Assembly: GCF_003334255.1 (NCBI RefSeq)
Contig: NZ_QOWU01000014.1
Origin: Escherichia coli
GTDB lineage: Bacteria; Pseudomonadota; Gammaproteobacteria; Enterobacterales; Enterobacteriaceae
Direction: 5' to 3' (one strand)
Length of the DNA stretch: 64,000 nucleotides
The number at the start of each line of letters is the position of its first letter. Position 1 is the stretch's first letter. Under the pieces are notes generated by a model that saw only the letters and a program-made list of their open reading frames with translations, was not told the DNA's origin and did no database searches. Below are positions 13,919-64,000 of the stretch, piece by piece. The position numbers and the translations under genes are program-made.

Positions 13919-14026
13919 ATATTTGGACAAAACGCAAACTGTGATCGATACTCAACTATGCACTAAATACGTCAAAATTCGTGCCGAAATTGCGCGTTCT
14001 GCGCGGAACACGTATACTTTCAGTGT

Positions 14027-14101
14027 TGACATAATACAGTGTGCTTTGCGGTTACCAGCCGCAGGCGACTGACGAAACCTCGCTCCGGCGGGGTTTTTTG
14101 T
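14027..14101 (+). ncRNA. istR: IstR-1 antitoxin sRNA (the longer IstR-2 would start ~65 nt upstream)
   Basis: …gttgacataatacagtgtgctttgcggttaccagccgcaggcgactgacgaaacctcgctccggcggggtttttt matches my recollection of IstR ending in its intrinsic terminator. 5' end is approximate. Confidence 0.65.
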
Positions 14102-18592: not shown

Positions 18593-19912
18593 ATGTTGCC
18601 GTTTCTGAAAGCGCCTGCCGATGCGCCATTAATGACTGATAAATATGAAATTGATGCCCGCTATCGCTACTGGCGTCGGCATATTCTGCTGACCATCTGG
18701 CTGGGTTACGCGCTGTTTTACTTCACGCGGAAAAGTTTTAACGCCGCCGTACCAGAAATCCTTGCTAACGGCGTGCTCAGCCGTAGCGATATCGGCCTGT
18801 TAGCGACCCTGTTTTACATTACCTATGGCGTGTCGAAGTTTGTCTCCGGCATTGTCAGCGATCGCTCAAATGCCCGTTATTTTATGGGGATAGGGCTTAT
18901 CGCCACGGGCATTATCAACATTCTGTTTGGCTTCTCGACGTCGCTATGGGCGTTTGCCGTGCTCTGGGTGCTGAACGCCTTTTTCCAGGGCTGGGGTTCA
19001 CCGGTGTGTGCGCGTCTGTTAACGGCCTGGTATTCACGTACCGAGCGCGGCGGTTGGTGGGCATTATGGAACACGGCGCATAACGTCGGCGGCGCACTCA
19101 TTCCCATTGTGATGGCAGCGGCTGCGCTGCATTACGGCTGGCGTGCCGGGATGATGATTGCTGGTTGTATGGCGATAGTCGTGGGGATTTTTCTCTGCTG
19201 GCGGCTACGCGATCGCCCGCAGGCGTTAGGTTTACCGGCGGTCGGTGAATGGCGACACGACGCGCTGGAAATTGCTCAACAACAAGAAGGGGCAGGGTTG
19301 ACGCGTAAAGAGATCCTCACCAAATATGTGTTGCTGAATCCGTATATCTGGCTGCTTTCGTTTTGCTATGTGCTGGTCTATGTGGTCCGGGCGGCGATCA
19401 ACGACTGGGGCAATTTGTATATGTCCGAGACACTGGGCGTCGATCTGGTCACGGCGAATACGGCAGTGACGATGTTTGAACTGGGCGGATTTATCGGTGC
19501 GCTGGTAGCCGGTTGGGGCTCGGACAAATTGTTTAACGGCAACCGAGGGCCGATGAATTTGATTTTCGCCGCCGGAATTTTGCTTTCAGTCGGCTCCCTG
19601 TGGCTGATGCCATTTGCCAGCTACGTGATGCAGGCAACCTGCTTCTTCACCATTGGTTTTTTTGTCTTTGGCCCACAGATGTTAATCGGTATGGCGGCGG
19701 CAGAGTGTTCCCACAAAGAGGCGGCAGGGGCGGCGACGGGGTTTGTCGGCTTGTTTGCTTATCTGGGGGCGTCGCTTGCTGGTTGGCCGCTGGCGAAAGT
19801 ACTCGATACCTGGCACTGGAGCGGATTTTTTGTGGTTATCTCTATCGCCGCCGGGATTTCCGCACTGCTGTTACTGCCCTTTTTGAACGCCCAGACACCG
19901 CGCGAAGCGTGA
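18593..19912 (+). CDS. uhpC: Glucose-6-phosphate sensor/transporter UhpC (MFS)
   Basis: ORF 18587..19912; MFS protein paralogous to UhpT. Start ambiguous among three consecutive Met codons. Confidence 0.85.
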   Translation: MLPFLKAPADAPLMTDKYEIDARYRYWRRHILLTIWLGYALFYFTRKSFNAAVPEILANGVLSRSDIGLLATLFYITYGVSKFVSGIVSDRSNARYFMGIGLIATGIINILFGFSTSLWAFAVLWVLNAFFQGWGSPVCARLLTAWYSRTERGGWWALWNTAHNVGGALIPIVMAAAALHYGWRAGMMIAGCMAIVVGIFLCWRLRDRPQALGLPAVGEWRHDALEIAQQQEGAGLTRKEILTKYVLLNPYIWLLSFCYVLVYVVRAAINDWGNLYMSETLGVDLVTANTAVTMFELGGFIGALVAGWGSDKLFNGNRGPMNLIFAAGILLSVGSLWLMPFASYVMQATCFFTIGFFVFGPQMLIGMAAAECSHKEAAGAATGFVGLFAYLGASLAGWPLAKVLDTWHWSGFFVVISIAAGISALLLLPFLNAQTPREA

Positions 19913-19956
19913 TGCATCTCACCTTTTCACTTCATATCCGGCAAAACTAAGAAATT

Positions 19957-21486: not shown

Positions 21487-23253
21487 TTATTCCGTGACTT
21501 CCAGCGTAGTGAAGGCAAACTTCTCGCCATCAAATAGCCCCTGACTGGTTAGTTTTAGCGCGGGGATCACTGGCAGAGAAAGAAACGCCATCTGAATAAA
21601 CGGCTCATCGGGTAACGGACCGCATTCACGGGCGGCGGCTTTCAAGGCGTCAATTTGTTCCGCCAGCGACTGCGCCGTGTCGGTGCTCATCAGCCCGGCA
21701 ATGGGTAACGGCAGATGACTTTGTACCTGGCCGTTACGTACCACGCACAGCCCGCCGCCATCCTGAATCACCTGATTGACCGCCAGCGCCATCTCTTCGG
21801 CACTGCGACCGATCACCACAATATTATGGCTGTCATGGCTGACCGTCGCAGCCAGCGCACCTTCATTCAGTCCAAAGCCGCCAAGCAAACCACAAGCCGG
21901 AGCCAGCCGTTGCCCGTAACGCTCAAGTACGGCAATAAAGCTCACATCATCGCGATCAAAACCATTTTCGCTGTAGACGCTGGAGTGGGAGTGCGTAATC
22001 AATTCGTTATGGATGACGTCAATGACCCGATAGCGTTTTCCGGGCGTAAATTGCAGGGCAAAGTCGCTGGCGGAAACTGGCTGGCGGGCAATGGTGTTGC
22101 CATATGGCGGAGCGGATTGTGCCAGTCTCGCCGACTCTTCCGCCTGTAAGGTTTGCGCATCAATCGGCTCGCCTTTCACCAGTACCTGCTGCACCGTGAC
22201 CTTACGCGCATCGCTCAACAGGACGATATCGGCCTGCTTGCCGGGTGCCAGTAAGCCGAGGTGATTCAGACCAAAGTGGCGCGCCGTCGACCAGCTGGCG
22301 ACGCGATATGCCACATGCAGCGGCACATTGTGTTGTTCGATCAGGCGGCGAATTAAGGCATCGATGTGTCCTTCATGGGCGATCTCCCACGGGTTACGGT
22401 CATCGGTACAGAGCATGCATTGCGGGCTGTTAAATTCGTTGATCAACGGTGCCAGCGCGTTGAGATTGCGGGCAGCGGACCCTTCGCGGATCATCAACGA
22501 CATGCCGAGTTGTAATTTCCGGCGTCCTTCTTCCAGCTGATAACTTTCGTGGCAGTTTTCAATACCCGCAGTAATATAGGCGTTAAGTTCTTTACCACCC
22601 AAACCCGGGCAGTGACCGTCCAGCGTCAGGTGGCGAAATGCATCCAGTTTATCGAGCAGCGCATTCTGCCCGCTAATTACGCCAGGGTAGTCCATCATTT
22701 CTGCAAGGCCGGTAACCTGCGGATGGTCCCGCCAGGCGAGCATCTGTTCAAGGGTAAAACTGGCACCGTTAACATCGCAGCCTTCCAGGGCGGGTACGCA
22801 AGAGCTGACCTGTAAGTACTGGTTTTGCCTTGCCTGTTCGGCACAGCGGGCAAACCAGGCGAATCCGGCTTCGCCCATCACGTTGACGATTTCATGAGGG
22901 TCGCAAATAACGGTCGTCAGGCCGCGCGGCAGGGTAGCGGTTTCAAAAGTGACCGGCGTCATCATGCTGGATTCAATATGCAGGTGAGCATCAATAAACC
23001 CTGGCACCGCCGTTGCGCCGCGAGCATCAATCCGCTGCAAAGCCGGAGCATCAGTGTATTCTGCGCCAACACCGGCAATGTAACGTCCTTTAATCACAAT
23101 TGGGCCGGAAATTTCTCCGCCATTGATCAGGTCGAGAATAGAGACATTATCAATAATATAATCGGCAACAGCGTCGCCACGGGAAACGGCTAACAATTCC
23201 TGGTATTCAGCCCGGCTAATGTGATGAAATTTATGGTTAATAGAATTATTCAT
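21487..23253 (-). CDS. ade: Adenine deaminase
   Basis: 588-aa amidohydrolase-fold ORF (…[14 protein letters not shown]…). Confidence 0.9.
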
Positions 23254-23348
23254 ATTTTTCTCATTTTGATTTTATCAATTTGATTATTATTTATCATAAA
23301 GAAACGTCGCGAGATTATTAAAGAATATCCATTAATGTGCAATTGAAA

Positions 23349-23364
23349 TGTGATAATTATCACT
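23349..23364. promoter_or_regulatory. CRP-like site in the ade/adeQ divergent region
   Basis: TGTGAtaattaTCACt, 9/10 match to TGTGA-N6-TCACA. Confidence 0.35.
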
Positions 23365-23427
23365 GAACCGTTGTTGTCATTTGTTTTACAAAAGCAAGGG
23401 ATTAAATCTCCTCCAATGGACAAAAAA

Positions 23428-24762
23428 ATGAATAATGACAATACCGATTACGTGAGTAATGAATCAGGGACGCTTTCGCGATTATTTAAACTACCTCAGC
23501 ATGGGACCACCGTCCGCACAGAATTGATTGCGGGGATGACCACTTTTTTAACCATGGTGTACATCGTTTTTGTGAACCCGCAAATCCTCGGCGCGGCACA
23601 AATGGACCCGAAAGTGGTGTTTGTTACCACCTGTTTGATTGCCGGTATCGGCAGTATTGCGATGGGGATATTTGCTAACTTACCCGTGGCGCTGGCTCCG
23701 GCAATGGGGCTGAACGCCTTCTTTGCCTTCGTGGTCGTGGGGGCGATGGGCATCTCCTGGCAGACCGGGATGGGCGCAATATTCTGGGGCGCAGTTGGAC
23801 TATTTTTGCTCACGCTGTTTCGTATCCGGTACTGGATGATCTCCAACATTCCCTTAAGTTTACGTATTGGTATCACCAGCGGAATTGGATTATTTATCGC
23901 CTTAATGGGATTAAAAAATACTGGCGTTATTGTCGCCAATAAAGACACGCTGGTGATGATTGGCGATTTAAGTTCTCACGGCGTGTTGTTAGGTATTTTA
24001 GGGTTTTTTATTATAACCGTGTTGTCATCACGTCATTTTCATGCCGCGGTGCTGGTTTCTATTGTGGTGACGTCTTGCTGTGGATTATTTTTCGGTGATG
24101 TTCATTTTAGCGGCGTCTATTCCATTCCGCCTGATATTAGCGGCGTCATTGGTGAAGTAGATTTGAGCGGCGCGTTAACACTTGAACTCGCCGGTATCAT
24201 TTTCTCCTTTATGCTGATCAACCTATTTGATTCATCAGGAACATTAATTGGTGTAACTGATAAAGCGGGCTTAATAGATGGTAACGGTAAATTCCCCAAT
24301 ATGAATAAGGCGCTGTATGTTGATAGCGTCAGTTCGGTGGCGGGTGCGTTTATCGGCACCTCGTCTGTTACTGCCTATATTGAAAGTACTTCTGGTGTGG
24401 CAGTCGGTGGCCGCACGGGGCTGACTGCGGTTGTGGTTGGCGTTATGTTCCTGTTGGTTATGTTCTTCTCACCGCTGGTGGCGATAGTTCCTCCTTACGC
24501 AACCGCCGGAGCGTTAATCTTTGTTGGCGTGCTGATGACTTCGAGCCTGGCGCGCGTTAACTGGGATGATTTTACCGAATCGGTGCCTGCGTTTATTACC
24601 ACGGTGATGATGCCCTTTACTTTCTCGATCACCGAAGGGATTGCACTCGGCTTTATGTCGTACTGCATCATGAAAGTATGCACCGGGCGCTGGCGCGATC
24701 TGAACCTGTGTGTGGTGGTGGTCGCAGCTCTGTTTGCACTGAAGATTATTCTGGTGGATTAG
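23428..24762 (+). CDS. adeQ: Adenine permease (NCS2/AzgA-like)
   Basis: ORF 23350..24762; start at MNNDNTDYVSNESGTLSRLF (444 aa). Confidence 0.85.
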   Translation: MNNDNTDYVSNESGTLSRLFKLPQHGTTVRTELIAGMTTFLTMVYIVFVNPQILGAAQMDPKVVFVTTCLIAGIGSIAMGIFANLPVALAPAMGLNAFFAFVVVGAMGISWQTGMGAIFWGAVGLFLLTLFRIRYWMISNIPLSLRIGITSGIGLFIALMGLKNTGVIVANKDTLVMIGDLSSHGVLLGILGFFIITVLSSRHFHAAVLVSIVVTSCCGLFFGDVHFSGVYSIPPDISGVIGEVDLSGALTLELAGIIFSFMLINLFDSSGTLIGVTDKAGLIDGNGKFPNMNKALYVDSVSSVAGAFIGTSSVTAYIESTSGVAVGGRTGLTAVVVGVMFLLVMFFSPLVAIVPPYATAGALIFVGVLMTSSLARVNWDDFTESVPAFITTVMMPFTFSITEGIALGFMSYCIMKVCTGRWRDLNLCVVVVAALFALKIILVD

Positions 24763-30900: not shown

Positions 30901-30995
30901 TGGCGGAAGATCACAGGAGTCGAACCTGCCCGGGACCGCTGGCGGCCCCAACTGGATTTGAAGTCCAGCCGCCTCACCGGAGACGACGATCTTCC
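30901..30995 (-). tRNA. selC: tRNA-Sec (selenocysteine, UCA anticodon)
   Basis: Reverse complement of 30901..30995 is GGAAGATCGTCGTCTCCGGTGAGGCGGCTGGACTTCAAATCCAGTTGGGGCCGCCAGCGGTCCCGGGCAGGTTCGACTCCTGTGATCTTCCGCCA, recognised as E. coli selC. Confidence 0.9.
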
Positions 30996-56914: not shown

Positions 56915-58679
<1,765 letters not shown>

Positions 58680-59050
58680 AGTAAATAGCTGACTTATGGA
58701 TGTGCTGGGGATTCTATGTATTTAGCTGTGGCTTTACCATTACTTTTCCCGTTTTTGACTTAAATAGCAATTTACCCGCCAATTCTTGCTGAACATCTAT
58801 ACTTTTTTTGTATTTTTATGCGATTCATTGATTTCTGCTGTACGTGCAGGAAGGAATCGCAGAGCAACAGTGAAAGAATATGGTTGCTAATGATTTTATT
58901 TGATTGATTTCTTTATTGAAAATCAACAATGTGCTTAAAAATCATTCGGGTCGGATTGCCGCGAAAGAAGTGATACACTAGCGCGTCAATATCAGTGCGG
59001 TATCAGTATTCAGGTAGCTGTTGAGCCTGGGGCGGTAGCGTGCTTTTTCT

Positions 59051-59062
59051 GCTTCACCTTAA
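59051..59062 (+). promoter_or_regulatory. ops element within a JUMPstart-like sequence upstream of waaQ
   Basis: GGCGGTAGCGTG, exact match to the ops motif as I recall it, in the 5' leader of the waaQ operon. Confidence 0.6.
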
Positions 59063-59091
59063 TCGGATAATCTCAACAAAAAGAGTTACTT

Positions 59092-60150
59092 GTGGATAAG
59101 CCATTTCGAAGAATTTTGCTCATTAAGATGCGTTTTCATGGGGATATGTTATTAACTACTCCCGTCATTAGTTCGCTGAAAAAAAATTACCCTGACGCAA
59201 AAATCGATGTGCTGCTTTATCAGGACACCATCCCGATCCTGTCTGAAAATCCAGAGATTAACGCGCTCTACGGCATAAAAAATAAAAAAGCAAAAGCCTC
59301 AGAAAAAATTGCCAACTTTTTTCATCTCATCAAGGTATTACGTGCCAATAAGTATGACCTTATCGTCAATCTTACCGATCAATGGATGGTTGCTATACTG
59401 GTTCGCTTATTAAATGCTCGTGTGAAAATTTCCCAGGATTATCATCATCGGCAGTCTGCTTTTTGGCGTAAAAGTTTCACCCATTTGGTGCCGTTGCAGG
59501 GTGGAAATGTGGTGGAAAGTAACTTATCCGTGCTGACACCATTGGGACTTGATTCGTTGGTGAAGCAGACAACCATGAGTTACCCGCCTGCAAGCTGGAA
59601 ACGTATGCGTCGCGAACTTGATCACGCTGGTGTTGGACAAAATTATGTGGTTATCCAACCTACGGCGCGGCAAATCTTCAAATGCTGGGACAACGCCAAG
59701 TTTTCCGCTGTGATTGATGCCTTACATGCTAGTGGTTATGAAGTCGTTCTGACGTCCGGCCCGGATAAAGACGATCTGGCCTGCGTCAATGAAATTGCGC
59801 AGGGATGCCAGACGCCACCAGTAACGGCGCTGGCTGGAAAGGTGACCTTCCCGGAACTTGGTGCGTTAATCGATCATGCGCAGCTGTTTATTGGCGTTGA
59901 TTCCGCACCGGCGCATATTGCCGCTGCAGTTAATACGCCGCTGATATCGCTGTTTGGTGCGACAGACCATATTTTCTGGCGTCCCTGGTCAAATAACATG
60001 ATTCAATTCTGGGCGGGAGATTACCGGGAAATGCCAACGCGCGATCAGCGTGACCGAAATGAGATGTATCTTTCGGTTATTCCGGCGGCAGATGTCATTG
60101 CTGCTGTCGATAAATTACTGCCCTTCTCCACGACAGGTACGTCGTTATGA
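59092..60150 (+). CDS. waaQ: LPS core heptosyltransferase III (GT9)
   Basis: ORF with non-ATG start at 59092; true start may be 59116 or the ATG at 59128. Product matches WaaQ. Confidence 0.8.
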   Translation: MDKPFRRILLIKMRFHGDMLLTTPVISSLKKNYPDAKIDVLLYQDTIPILSENPEINALYGIKNKKAKASEKIANFFHLIKVLRANKYDLIVNLTDQWMVAILVRLLNARVKISQDYHHRQSAFWRKSFTHLVPLQGGNVVESNLSVLTPLGLDSLVKQTTMSYPPASWKRMRRELDHAGVGQNYVVIQPTARQIFKCWDNAKFSAVIDALHASGYEVVLTSGPDKDDLACVNEIAQGCQTPPVTALAGKVTFPELGALIDHAQLFIGVDSAPAHIAAAVNTPLISLFGATDHIFWRPWSNNMIQFWAGDYREMPTRDQRDRNEMYLSVIPAADVIAAVDKLLPFSTTGTSL

Positions 60151-61271
60151 TCGTTGCTTTTTGTTTATATAAATATTTTCCCTTTGGCGGTTTGCAGCGC
60201 GATTTTATGCGTATTGCTCAGACAGTCGCCGCCCGAGGTCATCATGTTCGGGTTTATACCCAGTCGTGGGAAGGCGAATGCCCTGATGTATTTGAACTGA
60301 TCAAAGTGCCGGTTAAATCGCATACCAATCACGGGCGCAATGCGGAGTATTTTACCTGGGTGCAAAAACATTTACGCGAACATCCCGTCGATAAAGTCGT
60401 TGGATTCAACAAAATGCCGGGGCTGGACGTTTATTATGCCGCTGATGTTTGTTATGCCGAGAAAGTAGCGCAGGAGAAAGGCTTTTTCTATCGCCTGACG
60501 TCACGTTATCGCCATTATGCCGCCTTTGAGCGGGCAACCTTCGAACAGGGCAAGCCGACACAGCTGCTGATGCTGACAGATAAGCAAATCGCCGATTTCC
60601 AGAAACATTATCAGACTGAAGCGGAGCGTTTTCATATTCTGCCACCGGGGATTTATCCTGATCGTAAATATAGCCAGCAGCCAGCCAATAGCCGTGAAAT
60701 CTTCCGTAAGAAGAATGGAATAACCGAACAACAATATTTATTGTTGCAGGTCGGTTCAGACTTCACGCGTAAAGGTGTCGATCGTTCCATTGAAGCACTT
60801 GCTTCTTTACCGGATTCGCTGCGCCACAACACATTGCTATATGTTGTTGGGCAGGATAAACCGCGAAAATTTGAGGCGCTGGCAGAAAAACGCGGCGTGC
60901 GCAGTAATGTTCACTTCTTCTCGGGGCGCAATGATGTCTCGGAATTAATGGCGGCGGCGGATTTATTACTGCATCCTGCCTACCAGGAAGCGGCGGGAAT
61001 TGTGCTGCTGGAAGCGATTACTGCAGGATTACCGGTACTAACAACAGCCGTTTGTGGCTATGCGCCTTATATTGTCGAGGCCAATTGCGGCGAGGCTATT
61101 GCTGAGCCATTCCGCCAGGAAACATTGAATGAGATTTTACGCAAAGCGTTAACGCAATCTTCATTGCGCCAGGCCTGGGCGGAAAATGCGCGACATTATG
61201 CTGATACACAAGATTTATACAGTCTGCCAGAGAAAGCGGCGGATATCATAACGGGTGGTCTGGATGGTTGA
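60147..61271 (+). CDS. waaG: LPS core glucosyltransferase I (GT4)
   Basis: 374-aa [46 protein letters not shown]. Confidence 0.9.
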
Positions 61272-62061
61272 ACTTAAAGAGCCGTTTGCCACGTTATGGC
61301 GCGGTAAAGATCCTTTTGAGGAAGTTAAAACCTTGCAGGGTGAGATATTTCGTGAACTGGAAACTCGCCGTACTCTGCGCTTTGAAATGGCGGGAAAAAG
61401 CTATTTTCTCAAATGGCATCGCGGCACGACCCTGAAAGAGATAATCAAAAATTTACTCTCATTGCGGATGCCAGTATTAGGCGCAGACCGCGAATGGAAT
61501 GCGATTCATCGACTGCGGGATGTCGGCGTTGATACTATGTATGGGGTGGCATTCGGCGAAAAAGGCATGAATCCGCTGACCAGAACCTCGTTTATTATTA
61601 CCGAAGATCTGACACCAACCATAAGTCTGGAAGATTACTGTGCTGACTGGGCGACCAACCCACCAGATGTTCGCGTAAAGCGTATGCTTATTAAGCGTGT
61701 CGCGACGATGGTGCGCGATATGCATGCTGCGGGCATTAATCACCGTGACTGTTATATCTGTCATTTCCTGCTGCACTTGCCTTTTTCCGGTAAGGAAGAG
61801 GAGTTAAAAATTTCGGTAATTGACCTGCACCGGGCGCAGCTTCGCACGCGCGTTCCACGTCGTTGGCGCGATAAAGATCTTATTGGACTTTATTTTTCTT
61901 CGATGAATATTGGCCTGACTCAGCGGGATATCTGGCGGTTTATGAAGGTGTATTTTGCCGCTCCGCTTAAAGACATTCTCAAGCAGGAACAAGGACTGCT
62001 GTTGCAAGCAGAAGCAAAAGCCACAAAAATCAGGGAAAGAACGATTCGAAAATCGTTGTAA
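61264..62061 (+). CDS. waaP: LPS core heptose(I) kinase
   Basis: ORF 61255..62061; start at [20 protein letters not shown]. Confidence 0.85.
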
Positions 62062-62103
62062 CCCGTAACTTATTTTTGCCAAAATTTTGGATACAGAATA
62101 AAT

Positions 62104-63111
62104 ATGTCTCAACTCAATGATAGTGACATCATCCTTTTTGAGTATAATTTTCATTATCAAAATATAAGATCTAAAAATACTCTTGATATAGCATTTGGTA
62201 TTGACAGAAATTTTCTTTTTGGATGTGGTGTAGCCATCGCATCTATTCTATTAAACAATAGAGAAATCTCTTGTGAATTTCATGTTTTCACAGATTATAT
62301 CAGTGATAAAGACAAATTATATTTTTCTGATTTAGCAAAACAATATAATTCAAGAATTAATATTTATGTTATCAATTGTGATAAGCTGAAGTCATTACCA
62401 AGCACGAAAAACTGGACTTACGCAACATATTTTCGATTTATAATTGCAGATTATTTCTATCATAAACATGAAAAAATACTATATCTTGATGCAGATATTG
62501 CTTGCAAGGGTAGTATTAAAGAACTCTTAGATTATCAATTTTCTACTAATGAAATTGCCGCAGTTGTAGCTGAAAGAGATGTTGAATGGTGGCAAAATCG
62601 AGCCTCGGTATTAACTACACCACAGTTAGCTTCTGGATATTTCAATGCTGGTTTTTTACTGATAAATATTGATGAGTGGAATCTAAATAACATTTCGTCA
62701 AAAGCTATTGAAATGTTGCGTGACCCAGATTGGGTAAGTAAAATCACCCACCTTGATCAAGATGTACTGAATGTATTATTGAATGGTAAAGTGAAGTTTA
62801 TTTCGGAGAAATATAATACCCGATATAGTATTAACTATGAATTAAAAGACAAAGTTGATAATCCAGTCAATGATGACACCGTGTTTATACACTATGTGGG
62901 ACCTACAAAACCCTGGCATGAGTGGGCTGACTATCCGGTGTCACGTAGTTTTTTGATCGCCAAAGCAGCTTCTCCGTGGAGTAAAGAAGATTTACTTAAA
63001 CCTGTAAATAGCAATCAGTATCGGTATTGTGCAAAACATAAATTTAAACAAAAGCATTATATGGCAGGCATTTTTAATTATTTAAAGTATTATAAAGAAA
63101 AATGCTTCTAA
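62104..63111 (+). CDS. LPS outer-core alpha-1,3-glycosyltransferase, GT8 family (WaaI/WaaO-like)
   Basis: 335-aa ORF with GT8 N-terminal pattern …LDIAFGIDRNFLFGCGVAIASIL… and DxD region. AT-rich. Confidence 0.7.
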   Translation: MSQLNDSDIILFEYNFHYQNIRSKNTLDIAFGIDRNFLFGCGVAIASILLNNREISCEFHVFTDYISDKDKLYFSDLAKQYNSRINIYVINCDKLKSLPSTKNWTYATYFRFIIADYFYHKHEKILYLDADIACKGSIKELLDYQFSTNEIAAVVAERDVEWWQNRASVLTTPQLASGYFNAGFLLINIDEWNLNNISSKAIEMLRDPDWVSKITHLDQDVLNVLLNGKVKFISEKYNTRYSINYELKDKVDNPVNDDTVFIHYVGPTKPWHEWADYPVSRSFLIAKAASPWSKEDLLKPVNSNQYRYCAKHKFKQKHYMAGIFNYLKYYKEKCF

Positions 63112-63136
63112 AGATTTAAGGTTAAAATAATTCATT

Positions 63137-63844
63137 ATGATATATAATAAAACGATAAATGGGTTGAAAGTTTTCATAAAAGATAATGATCCCTTTTATG
63201 AGCAAGTTCTAAATGACTTTTTAACTTGCAGGGTTAAAACATTAAAAGTTTTTCGTTCTATTGATGATACTAAAGTCATTCTTATTGACACTGCTCGTGG
63301 ACCTCTTGTACTTAAAGTTTATGCGCCAAAGCATAAAATGACCGAACGTTTCTTAAAATCTTGCATAAAAAAAGATTATTATGAAAATTTAATTTATCAA
63401 ACCGATCGGGTACGTGGTGAAGGCATCCAATCAATTAATGACTATTTTTTGCTAGCTGAACGTAAAACATTAAATTTCGCTCATTATTATATTATGCTCA
63501 TTGAGTATATTGAAGGTGTCGGGTTAAATGAGTATTTGGAAATTTCTGAAGATCTGAAGGATCAATTATCAGAATCGATAAAAGAGTTGCATCAGCATGG
63601 AATGGTGTCTGGCGATCCTCATAAAGGAAATTTTATAGTATCCGAAAAAGGTTTAAGACTAATTGACCTTTCAGGTAAAAAAACAACCGCTGTTTTAAAA
63701 GCAAAAGATCGCATTGATCTTGAACGGCACTATAATATAAAAAATGAATTGAAAGACTTTGGCTATACATATCTTATATTCAAAAAGAAAATTAAAAAAG
63801 TAATCAGGGATGTAAAAGTCAAACTAGGATTGAAGAGCAAATAA
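63137..63844 (+). CDS. waaY: LPS core heptose(II) kinase, WaaY-like
   Basis: 235-aa ORF with kinase-like …LHQHGMVSGDPHKGNFIV…IDLSGK… resembling WaaY. AT-rich. Confidence 0.75.
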   Translation: MIYNKTINGLKVFIKDNDPFYEQVLNDFLTCRVKTLKVFRSIDDTKVILIDTARGPLVLKVYAPKHKMTERFLKSCIKKDYYENLIYQTDRVRGEGIQSINDYFLLAERKTLNFAHYYIMLIEYIEGVGLNEYLEISEDLKDQLSESIKELHQHGMVSGDPHKGNFIVSEKGLRLIDLSGKKTTAVLKAKDRIDLERHYNIKNELKDFGYTYLIFKKKIKKVIRDVKVKLGLKSK

Positions 63845-63868
63845 TGATTATGATGAAGGGTAATTAAA

Positions 63869-64000
63869 TTGGATTTTAAACATCTTACTCAATTTAAAGA
63901 TATAATTGAACTGGACAAGCGCCCCGTTAAACTTGATGAACGGGAAACGTTTAATGTCTCATGGGGTATTGATGAGAACTACCAGGTTGGGGCTGCGATT
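63869..64000 (+). CDS. Second GT8-family LPS outer-core glycosyltransferase, 5' part only (runs out of window)
   Basis: Frame from 63869 gives …ETFNVSWGIDENYQVGAAI, a GT8 N-terminal motif. No ATG in frame, so the start is uncertain. Confidence 0.45.
   Translation, partial: MDFKHLTQFKDIIELDKRPVKLDERETFNVSWGIDENYQVGAAI

Follow-up and report, generated by a model that had tools for sequence, protein, structure and literature searches.

The genes for adenine deaminase and adenine permease, adeD (also ade or yicP) and adeQ (yicO), lie divergently in Escherichia coli with one short spacer between them, which raises the question of how a single stretch of DNA controls both genes when one of them is described as cryptic. 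We analysed this spacer within a 64-kb stretch of E. coli DNA (64,000 nucleotides; the window), the positions of which are used throughout. The reading that we prefer, and consider highly likely, is that of a shared control region in which a single CRP-cAMP dimer activates both adeD and adeQ beneath H-NS silencing. The CRP site and the H-NS silencing at adeD/adeQ are real, ordinary and already known, and the system is the same as in K-12.

The divergent adeD/adeQ locus

The window is chromosomal E. coli DNA at this locus, and a 401-bp query around the spacer matched 5403 of the 5426 complete E. coli genomes, where the genes are annotated adeD and adeQ. The first-pass annotation had called the two genes an adenine deaminase and an adenine permease, and both identities are right, RefSeq giving identical E. 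coli DNA the names adeD and adeQ. Over its first 49 kb the window shows 99.945% identity with K-12 MG1655, read in the other direction, and the spacer corresponds to positions 3843790..3843963 of K-12 NC_000913 with every base matching. We ruled out an in-frame ATG at 23416 as the adeQ start because a 1-nucleotide indel in Citrobacter disrupts the reading frame there.

About 15 of the 5403 E. coli genomes have an interrupted spacer. In E. coli WP3-S18-ESBL-07 (NZ_AP022030.1 36263-43306), an IS1 copy adjoins adeD, and a deletion has taken adeQ-yicN-nepI-yicS and part of nlpA, so that the 5' end of adeD and the spacer are gone. Elsewhere in the window, the waaQ-waaG-waaP region (58000..64000) has 74–79% identity to K-12 and positions 61958..64000 have no match in K-12 at all. 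The LPS core type therefore differs from that of K-12, the remainder of the window being K-12-like. This region also has a JUMPstart element (59004..59042), and the lowest G+C anywhere in the window (21–24%) is found at 62314..63907. Rfam matches identified istR, the antitoxin RNA of the tisB/istR locus, at 13970..14099 and tRNA-Sec (selC) at 30905..30995; selC carries no inserted island, since collinearity with K-12 runs on across it.

Table 1. Positions of genes, operator, candidate promoter elements and conserved block in the window, with identity to the window where given.
Feature	Position	Strand	Details	Identity to window (7 non-Escherichia sequences)
adeD (ade, yicP), adenine deaminase CDS	21487..23253	-	588 aa; open reading frame list and RefSeq annotation of identical E. 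coli DNA	
adeQ (yicO), adenine permease CDS	23428..24762	+	444 aa; ATG at 23428; RefSeq annotation of identical E. coli DNA	
Third codon positions, adeD and adeQ				0.53-0.55
Divergent adeD/adeQ spacer	23254..23427	.	174 bp, 27% G+C	
CRP-cAMP operator, 22 bp, AAATGTGATAATTATCACTGAA	23346..23367	.	core 23349..23364; dyad centre 23356.5	
CRP half-sites				0.87 and 0.98
CRP site centre				0.43
Flanks of CRP site				0.41-0.61
Candidate adeQ -10, TTTACAAA, preceded by TGT	23385..23392	+	predicted start ~23398; would place CRP at -41.5 (class II)	
Alternative adeQ -10, TTAAAT	23402..23407	+	would place CRP near -57.5	
Candidate adeD -10, TATGAT	23293..23298	-	promoter scan; predicted start ~23286	
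Candidate adeD -35, TTAATA	23316..23321	-	promoter scan; pairs with the -10 above	
Alternative adeD extended -10, TGATAAAAT	23269..23277	-	predicted start ~23262; leader of ~9 nt only	
Near-invariant 45-bp block adjoining the adeD ATG	23254..23298	-		0.91

The CRP operator and its conservation

A near-consensus CRP palindrome had been noted in the spacer, and its coordinates and sequence proved exact. In the core, TGTGATAATTATCACT, 9 of 10 positions conform to TGTGA-N6-TCACA, the left half of the operator, AAATGTGAT, agrees perfectly with the extended CRP consensus, and no better CRP-core match was found within the window. An exact 30-mer covering it occurs in 5351 of the 5426 complete E. coli genomes. 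The uhpT/uhpC spacer offers an internal benchmark, in that a known CRP site lies there, presumably CGTGATGCATCTCACC at 19908..19923, a 2-mismatch core and the only one that our scan of that spacer returned. The adeD/adeQ site is closer to the CRP consensus than this uhpT/uhpC core. A second CRP-like match in the adeD/adeQ spacer, at 23375 and with two mismatches, was discarded as it is not conserved outside Escherichia.

A palindrome of this kind might be a chance product of AT-rich DNA with no regulatory role, its conservation reflecting slow divergence of the spacer. TGTGA- and TCACA-like words arise readily in such DNA, and a pattern scan allowing up to one mismatch to TGTGA-N6-TCACA found 1 match in the 64 kb versus 1.75 expected from shuffles, so that the bare motif count in the window is not beyond chance. 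However, when the spacer itself was shuffled, 0.5% (0.005) of the copies contained a CRP-core match of this quality. The conservation of the site bears on the same point. A scan for AdeD with one genome per species gave 15 Enterobacterales loci, and the divergent adeQ-adeD order is retained in Escherichia, Citrobacter, Cedecea, Kluyvera and Morganella. The footprint was taken from 13 orthologous spacers in four genera, seven of them from outside Escherichia (Citrobacter 4, Cedecea 1, Kluyvera 2). In this alignment ATGTGAT and ATCACTGAA show little or no variation across Escherichia, Citrobacter, Cedecea and Kluyvera, the sole exception to half-site retention being one G-to-T change in the type strain of E. 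albertii. The four bases at the centre of the site vary among taxa (AATT, TGCA, AACT, TGTA), and both the centre and the flanks diverge at about the rate of third codon positions (Table 1). In all 13 spacers the site starts 96–97 nucleotides from the adeD ATG and is centred 69–73 nucleotides from the adeQ ATG. The site, its conservation footprint and its fixed position are observations of this analysis, and the pattern is, as judged from the alignment, the classic footprint of a dimeric operator. Because its half-sites are conserved across genera, the motif is more than chance, though the bare count lies within it; half-sites that are nearly invariant in seven non-Escherichia taxa, with the bases between and around them at neutral divergence, are not what slow divergence of the whole spacer predicts.

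Two taxa depart from the pattern. In Escherichia albertii NBRC 107761 the left half-site reads TGTTAT and not TGTGAT; the altered G is the most important base for CRP contact, and the site may therefore be weaker in this species or strain. Morganella morganii has the divergent adeQ-adeD pair with a spacer of 218 bp and 44% G+C, in which we found neither a CRP-like core nor AT-richness, and so a CRP site combined with an AT-rich spacer does not occur throughout Enterobacterales.

That Crp-cAMP binds these promoter fragments, and that expression depends on crp, has been published by others. In Li et al. 2021 (PMC8085971, Table 1, Fig. 3D), adeD and adeQ are among the 'novel and validated' genes in the class 'Crp activation', on the basis of RNA-seq of a crp deletion against wild type on seven carbon sources, and adeD and adeQ promoter fragments were shifted in EMSA by Crp with 1 mM cAMP. 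We infer that the site predicted in that work is 23349..23364, because the spacer holds no other comparable match. The published gel shift gave a fragment only; the cross-genus footprint adds the placement of the Crp target at the 22-bp operator and the fixed spacing of this operator to both start codons. The CRP reading of the first-pass annotation is thus supported by half-site conservation across genera and by the crp-deletion RNA-seq and EMSA given there, and the checks that it had proposed (EMSA, crp and hns mutants) have largely been done already by others. The same gel shift and crp-dependence count against a chance palindrome, which we regard as extremely unlikely. In the accessible text and supplements of genome-wide CRP ChIP studies (ETEC, EAEC and K-12 ChIP-exo) the names adeD and adeQ are absent, which is weak negative evidence as regards strong CRP occupancy at adeD/adeQ in vivo; occupancy may be low, possibly owing to H-NS. 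The two genes are likewise not named in the accessible part of a cAMP-titration transcriptome paper.

We also considered whether the operator belongs to a regulator other than CRP, such as FNR, some other CRP/FNR-family protein or a dimer of unrelated type. Its GTGAT-N4-ATCAC agrees with the FNR core TTGAT-N4-ATCAA at 8 of 10 positions, and the conserved flank CTGAA falls outside the CRP consensus. However, the site is one of 45 two-mismatch matches to the FNR core where 34 were expected, and we rejected FNR on the strength of so unremarkable a match. In addition, both halves carry the CRP-specific G (GTGA, not TTGA), which is conserved except in the one E. albertii half-site, and purified Crp-cAMP shifts the fragment (PMC8085971). 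An operator for a regulator other than CRP is therefore very unlikely. Comparison by eye with the consensuses of CytR, PurR, PlaR, Fur, IHF, TyrR and ArgR (in part from PMC6958661) gave no convincing or conserved match in the spacer. Genomic SELEX (gSELEX) placed a peak of PlaR (YiaJ) in this spacer (PMC6958661). We found no good match to the PlaR box given there, ATnTGAAACnnnGTTCAnTT, anywhere in 23254..23427, and the peak is therefore possibly due to non-specific binding to AT-rich DNA.

Predicted promoter geometry and the block beside adeD

In the mechanism that we favour, a CRP-cAMP dimer would bind the operator, whose centre falls between 23356 and 23357, at the high cAMP levels of a poor carbon supply, and would activate transcription both ways. 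Control of adenine uptake and deamination by cAMP-CRP fits the known role of cAMP-CRP in controlling nucleoside catabolism. The promoter elements and promoter classes named here are predictions, and CRP and H-NS may compete. Activating positions for CRP are -41.5, -61.5, -71.5 and so on. To the right, class II-type activation of adeQ would be most likely, with the site lying across the -35 position in a weak promoter that would use the first adeQ -10 candidate of Table 1. With a start near 23398, the invariant CTGAA at the right edge of the CRP site would occupy the adeQ -35 position. This -10 region is partly conserved (0.69 identity in non-Escherichia taxa) and was not picked up by our consensus promoter scan. 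To the left, upstream class I-type activation of adeD would be most likely, with the site some 70 bp before a start close to 23286, which would put CRP at about -70.5 (class I-like). IS insertions in this region reportedly run from -145 to +13, a weak consistency argument for an adeD start near 23286. The alternative extended -10 of adeD is identical in 14 of 14 alignable spacers (all but Morganella). The assignments to class I and class II are predicted only, because the candidate -10 elements of adeQ are missing the T that normally occupies -7.

The most serious rival to a shared operator is a refinement of it, in which CRP directly activates adeQ only, from an adjacent class II-type position, and the crp-dependence of adeD is indirect or an artefact of a shared EMSA fragment; adeD would then be governed essentially by H-NS together with any factor that reads the conserved block beside its start. 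The CRP centre is 71 nucleotides from the adeQ ATG and ~103 nucleotides from the adeD ATG, CTGAA, the conserved flank to the right, looks like a -35 facing adeQ, and adeD carries a proximal block of its own that is far more conserved. Moreover, EMSA on 'each promoter' cannot tell the two genes apart, because both have one common 174-bp spacer. However, one CRP target can activate divergent promoters, as El-Robh and Busby reportedly found in 2002 (Biochem J), and the distance of the site from the adeD ATG is conserved as strictly as its distance from adeQ. Expression of adeD itself is also lower in the crp deletion, according to Li et al. (PMC8085971). We consider it rather unlikely that CRP acts directly on adeQ only, and rather unlikely too that adeD is left to H-NS and a factor at the block.

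The block next to the adeD start codon nevertheless deserves attention in its own right. Its identity among the non-Escherichia taxa compares with 0.53–0.55 for third codon positions in Citrobacter, Cedecea and Kluyvera, and exceeds even that of the CRP site. Within it are two tandem 14-bp repeats, TCAAAATGAGAAAA and TCAAATTGATAAAA, at 23256..23283, and a perfect TTGAT-N3-ATCAA palindrome, TTGATTTTATCAA, at 23266..23278; this pattern, picked post hoc, was found once versus 0.07 expected. Rfam gave no family matches in the spacer, the putative ade leader showed no significant RNA structure (z = -1.0), no second copy of the block was found in E. coli genomes, and consensuses compared by eye yielded no known regulator motif that accounts for it. 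This stretch probably comprises the core promoter and leader of ade. Its high conservation leaves room for a specific regulator, and it is conceivable, if unlikely, that the block is the operator or the leader-RNA target of such a regulator, one that would unlock adenine deaminase under a natural signal. The accompanying idea that CRP would then serve as a co-activator, or as a counter-silencer against H-NS, is just as tentative. If a specific regulator did act here, ade would be conditionally induced and not cryptic, and the block is the only lead in this analysis that could yield something new.

H-NS silencing and comparison with known systems

The region had also been described as ~175 bp of very AT-rich DNA of the kind targeted by nucleoid-silencing proteins, and the composition is borne out. 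The spacer is 73% A+T, the window as a whole having 50.9% G+C; it falls in the bottom 1% for G+C among all 174-bp windows and has the lowest G+C of the 27 intergenic regions in the K-12-collinear part of the window, the next lowest having 37%. This extreme AT content, too, was observed here directly. Orthologous spacers in Escherichia, Citrobacter, Cedecea and Kluyvera measure 172–176 bp with 26–30% G+C, and an A+T content well above the genome average, which is the composition of an H-NS-silenced locus, is found in the spacer and retained in its orthologues. Cross-genus comparison thus shows a site position and an AT-rich spacer that appear ancestral to Escherichia, Citrobacter, Kluyvera and Cedecea, an arrangement which argues that the 'cryptic' gene has been kept under regulation and is not decaying. 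To our knowledge, H-NS does not require a high-affinity motif for binding. The high-affinity nucleation motif that Lang et al. reportedly described in 2007, TCGATAAATT, has no close match in the spacer, the best being 8 of 10 at 23269..23278 (TTGATAAAAT).

On the preferred reading of a CRP operator beneath H-NS, the protein would coat the spacer and leave adeD near-silent ('cryptic') in laboratory conditions, and the silencing would be relieved by insertion elements in the spacer or at the adeQ start, by loss of hns, or by over-produced AT-binding regulators. H-NS silencing and activation by IS elements have been published by others. Petersen, Moller and Valentin-Hansen 2002 (JBC 277:31373), as relayed in PMC2753651 and PMC13274399, described the cryptic ade gene as silenced by H-NS and activated by insertion elements, and the nucleoid-silencing part of the first-pass annotation agrees with this. 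In the evolution of cocultures that cross-feed on adenine, enrichment of insertion elements upstream of adeD, within the adeD/adeQ intergenic region, was seen once more (PMC13274399). Induction or over-production of TosR in strain CFT073 raised yicP by a tabulated fold change of 4.4, which we take as log2, alongside many fimbrial genes (PMC5956150); we interpret TosR as an AT-binding regulator and the rise in yicP as anti-silencing behaviour. The locus is thus a textbook-style catabolic gene pair with cAMP-CRP control buried under H-NS, and its importance beyond confirmation is small.

The nearest comparison is the published ade (adeD)/adeQ region of K-12 (Petersen 2002; Li et al. 2021, PMC8085971), which is the same locus with an identical spacer and the same two regulators. 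Like ade, the H-NS-silenced cryptic bgl operon has an AT-rich control region, is silent in the wild type and is activated by IS insertion or loss of hns, and in both a CRP-dependent promoter lies beneath the silencing (PMC2753651). Unlike bgl, ade is a single purine-salvage gene accompanied by a divergent transporter. We know of no specific antiterminator or activator for ade.

Natural CRP targets at divergent promoters include several divergent sugar operons. The adeD/adeQ region and the case of El-Robh and Busby both have one dimer site in a short divergent spacer, and adeD and adeQ are both reported to be activated by Crp; unlike in that case, their starts and promoter classes are predicted only. 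The CRP site of the lac promoter, TGTGAGTTAGCTCACT, is a class I site at -61.5. It shares with the adeD/adeQ site a 9 of 10 core and the same deviating last base (TCACT), and against the 22-bp CRP consensus the adeD/adeQ site scores 14 of 22 and lac 15 of 22. Unlike lac, the adeD/adeQ site stands at distances from the transcription starts that are predicted only, has T and A inside the pentamers (TGTGAT....ATCAC) and serves two divergent genes.
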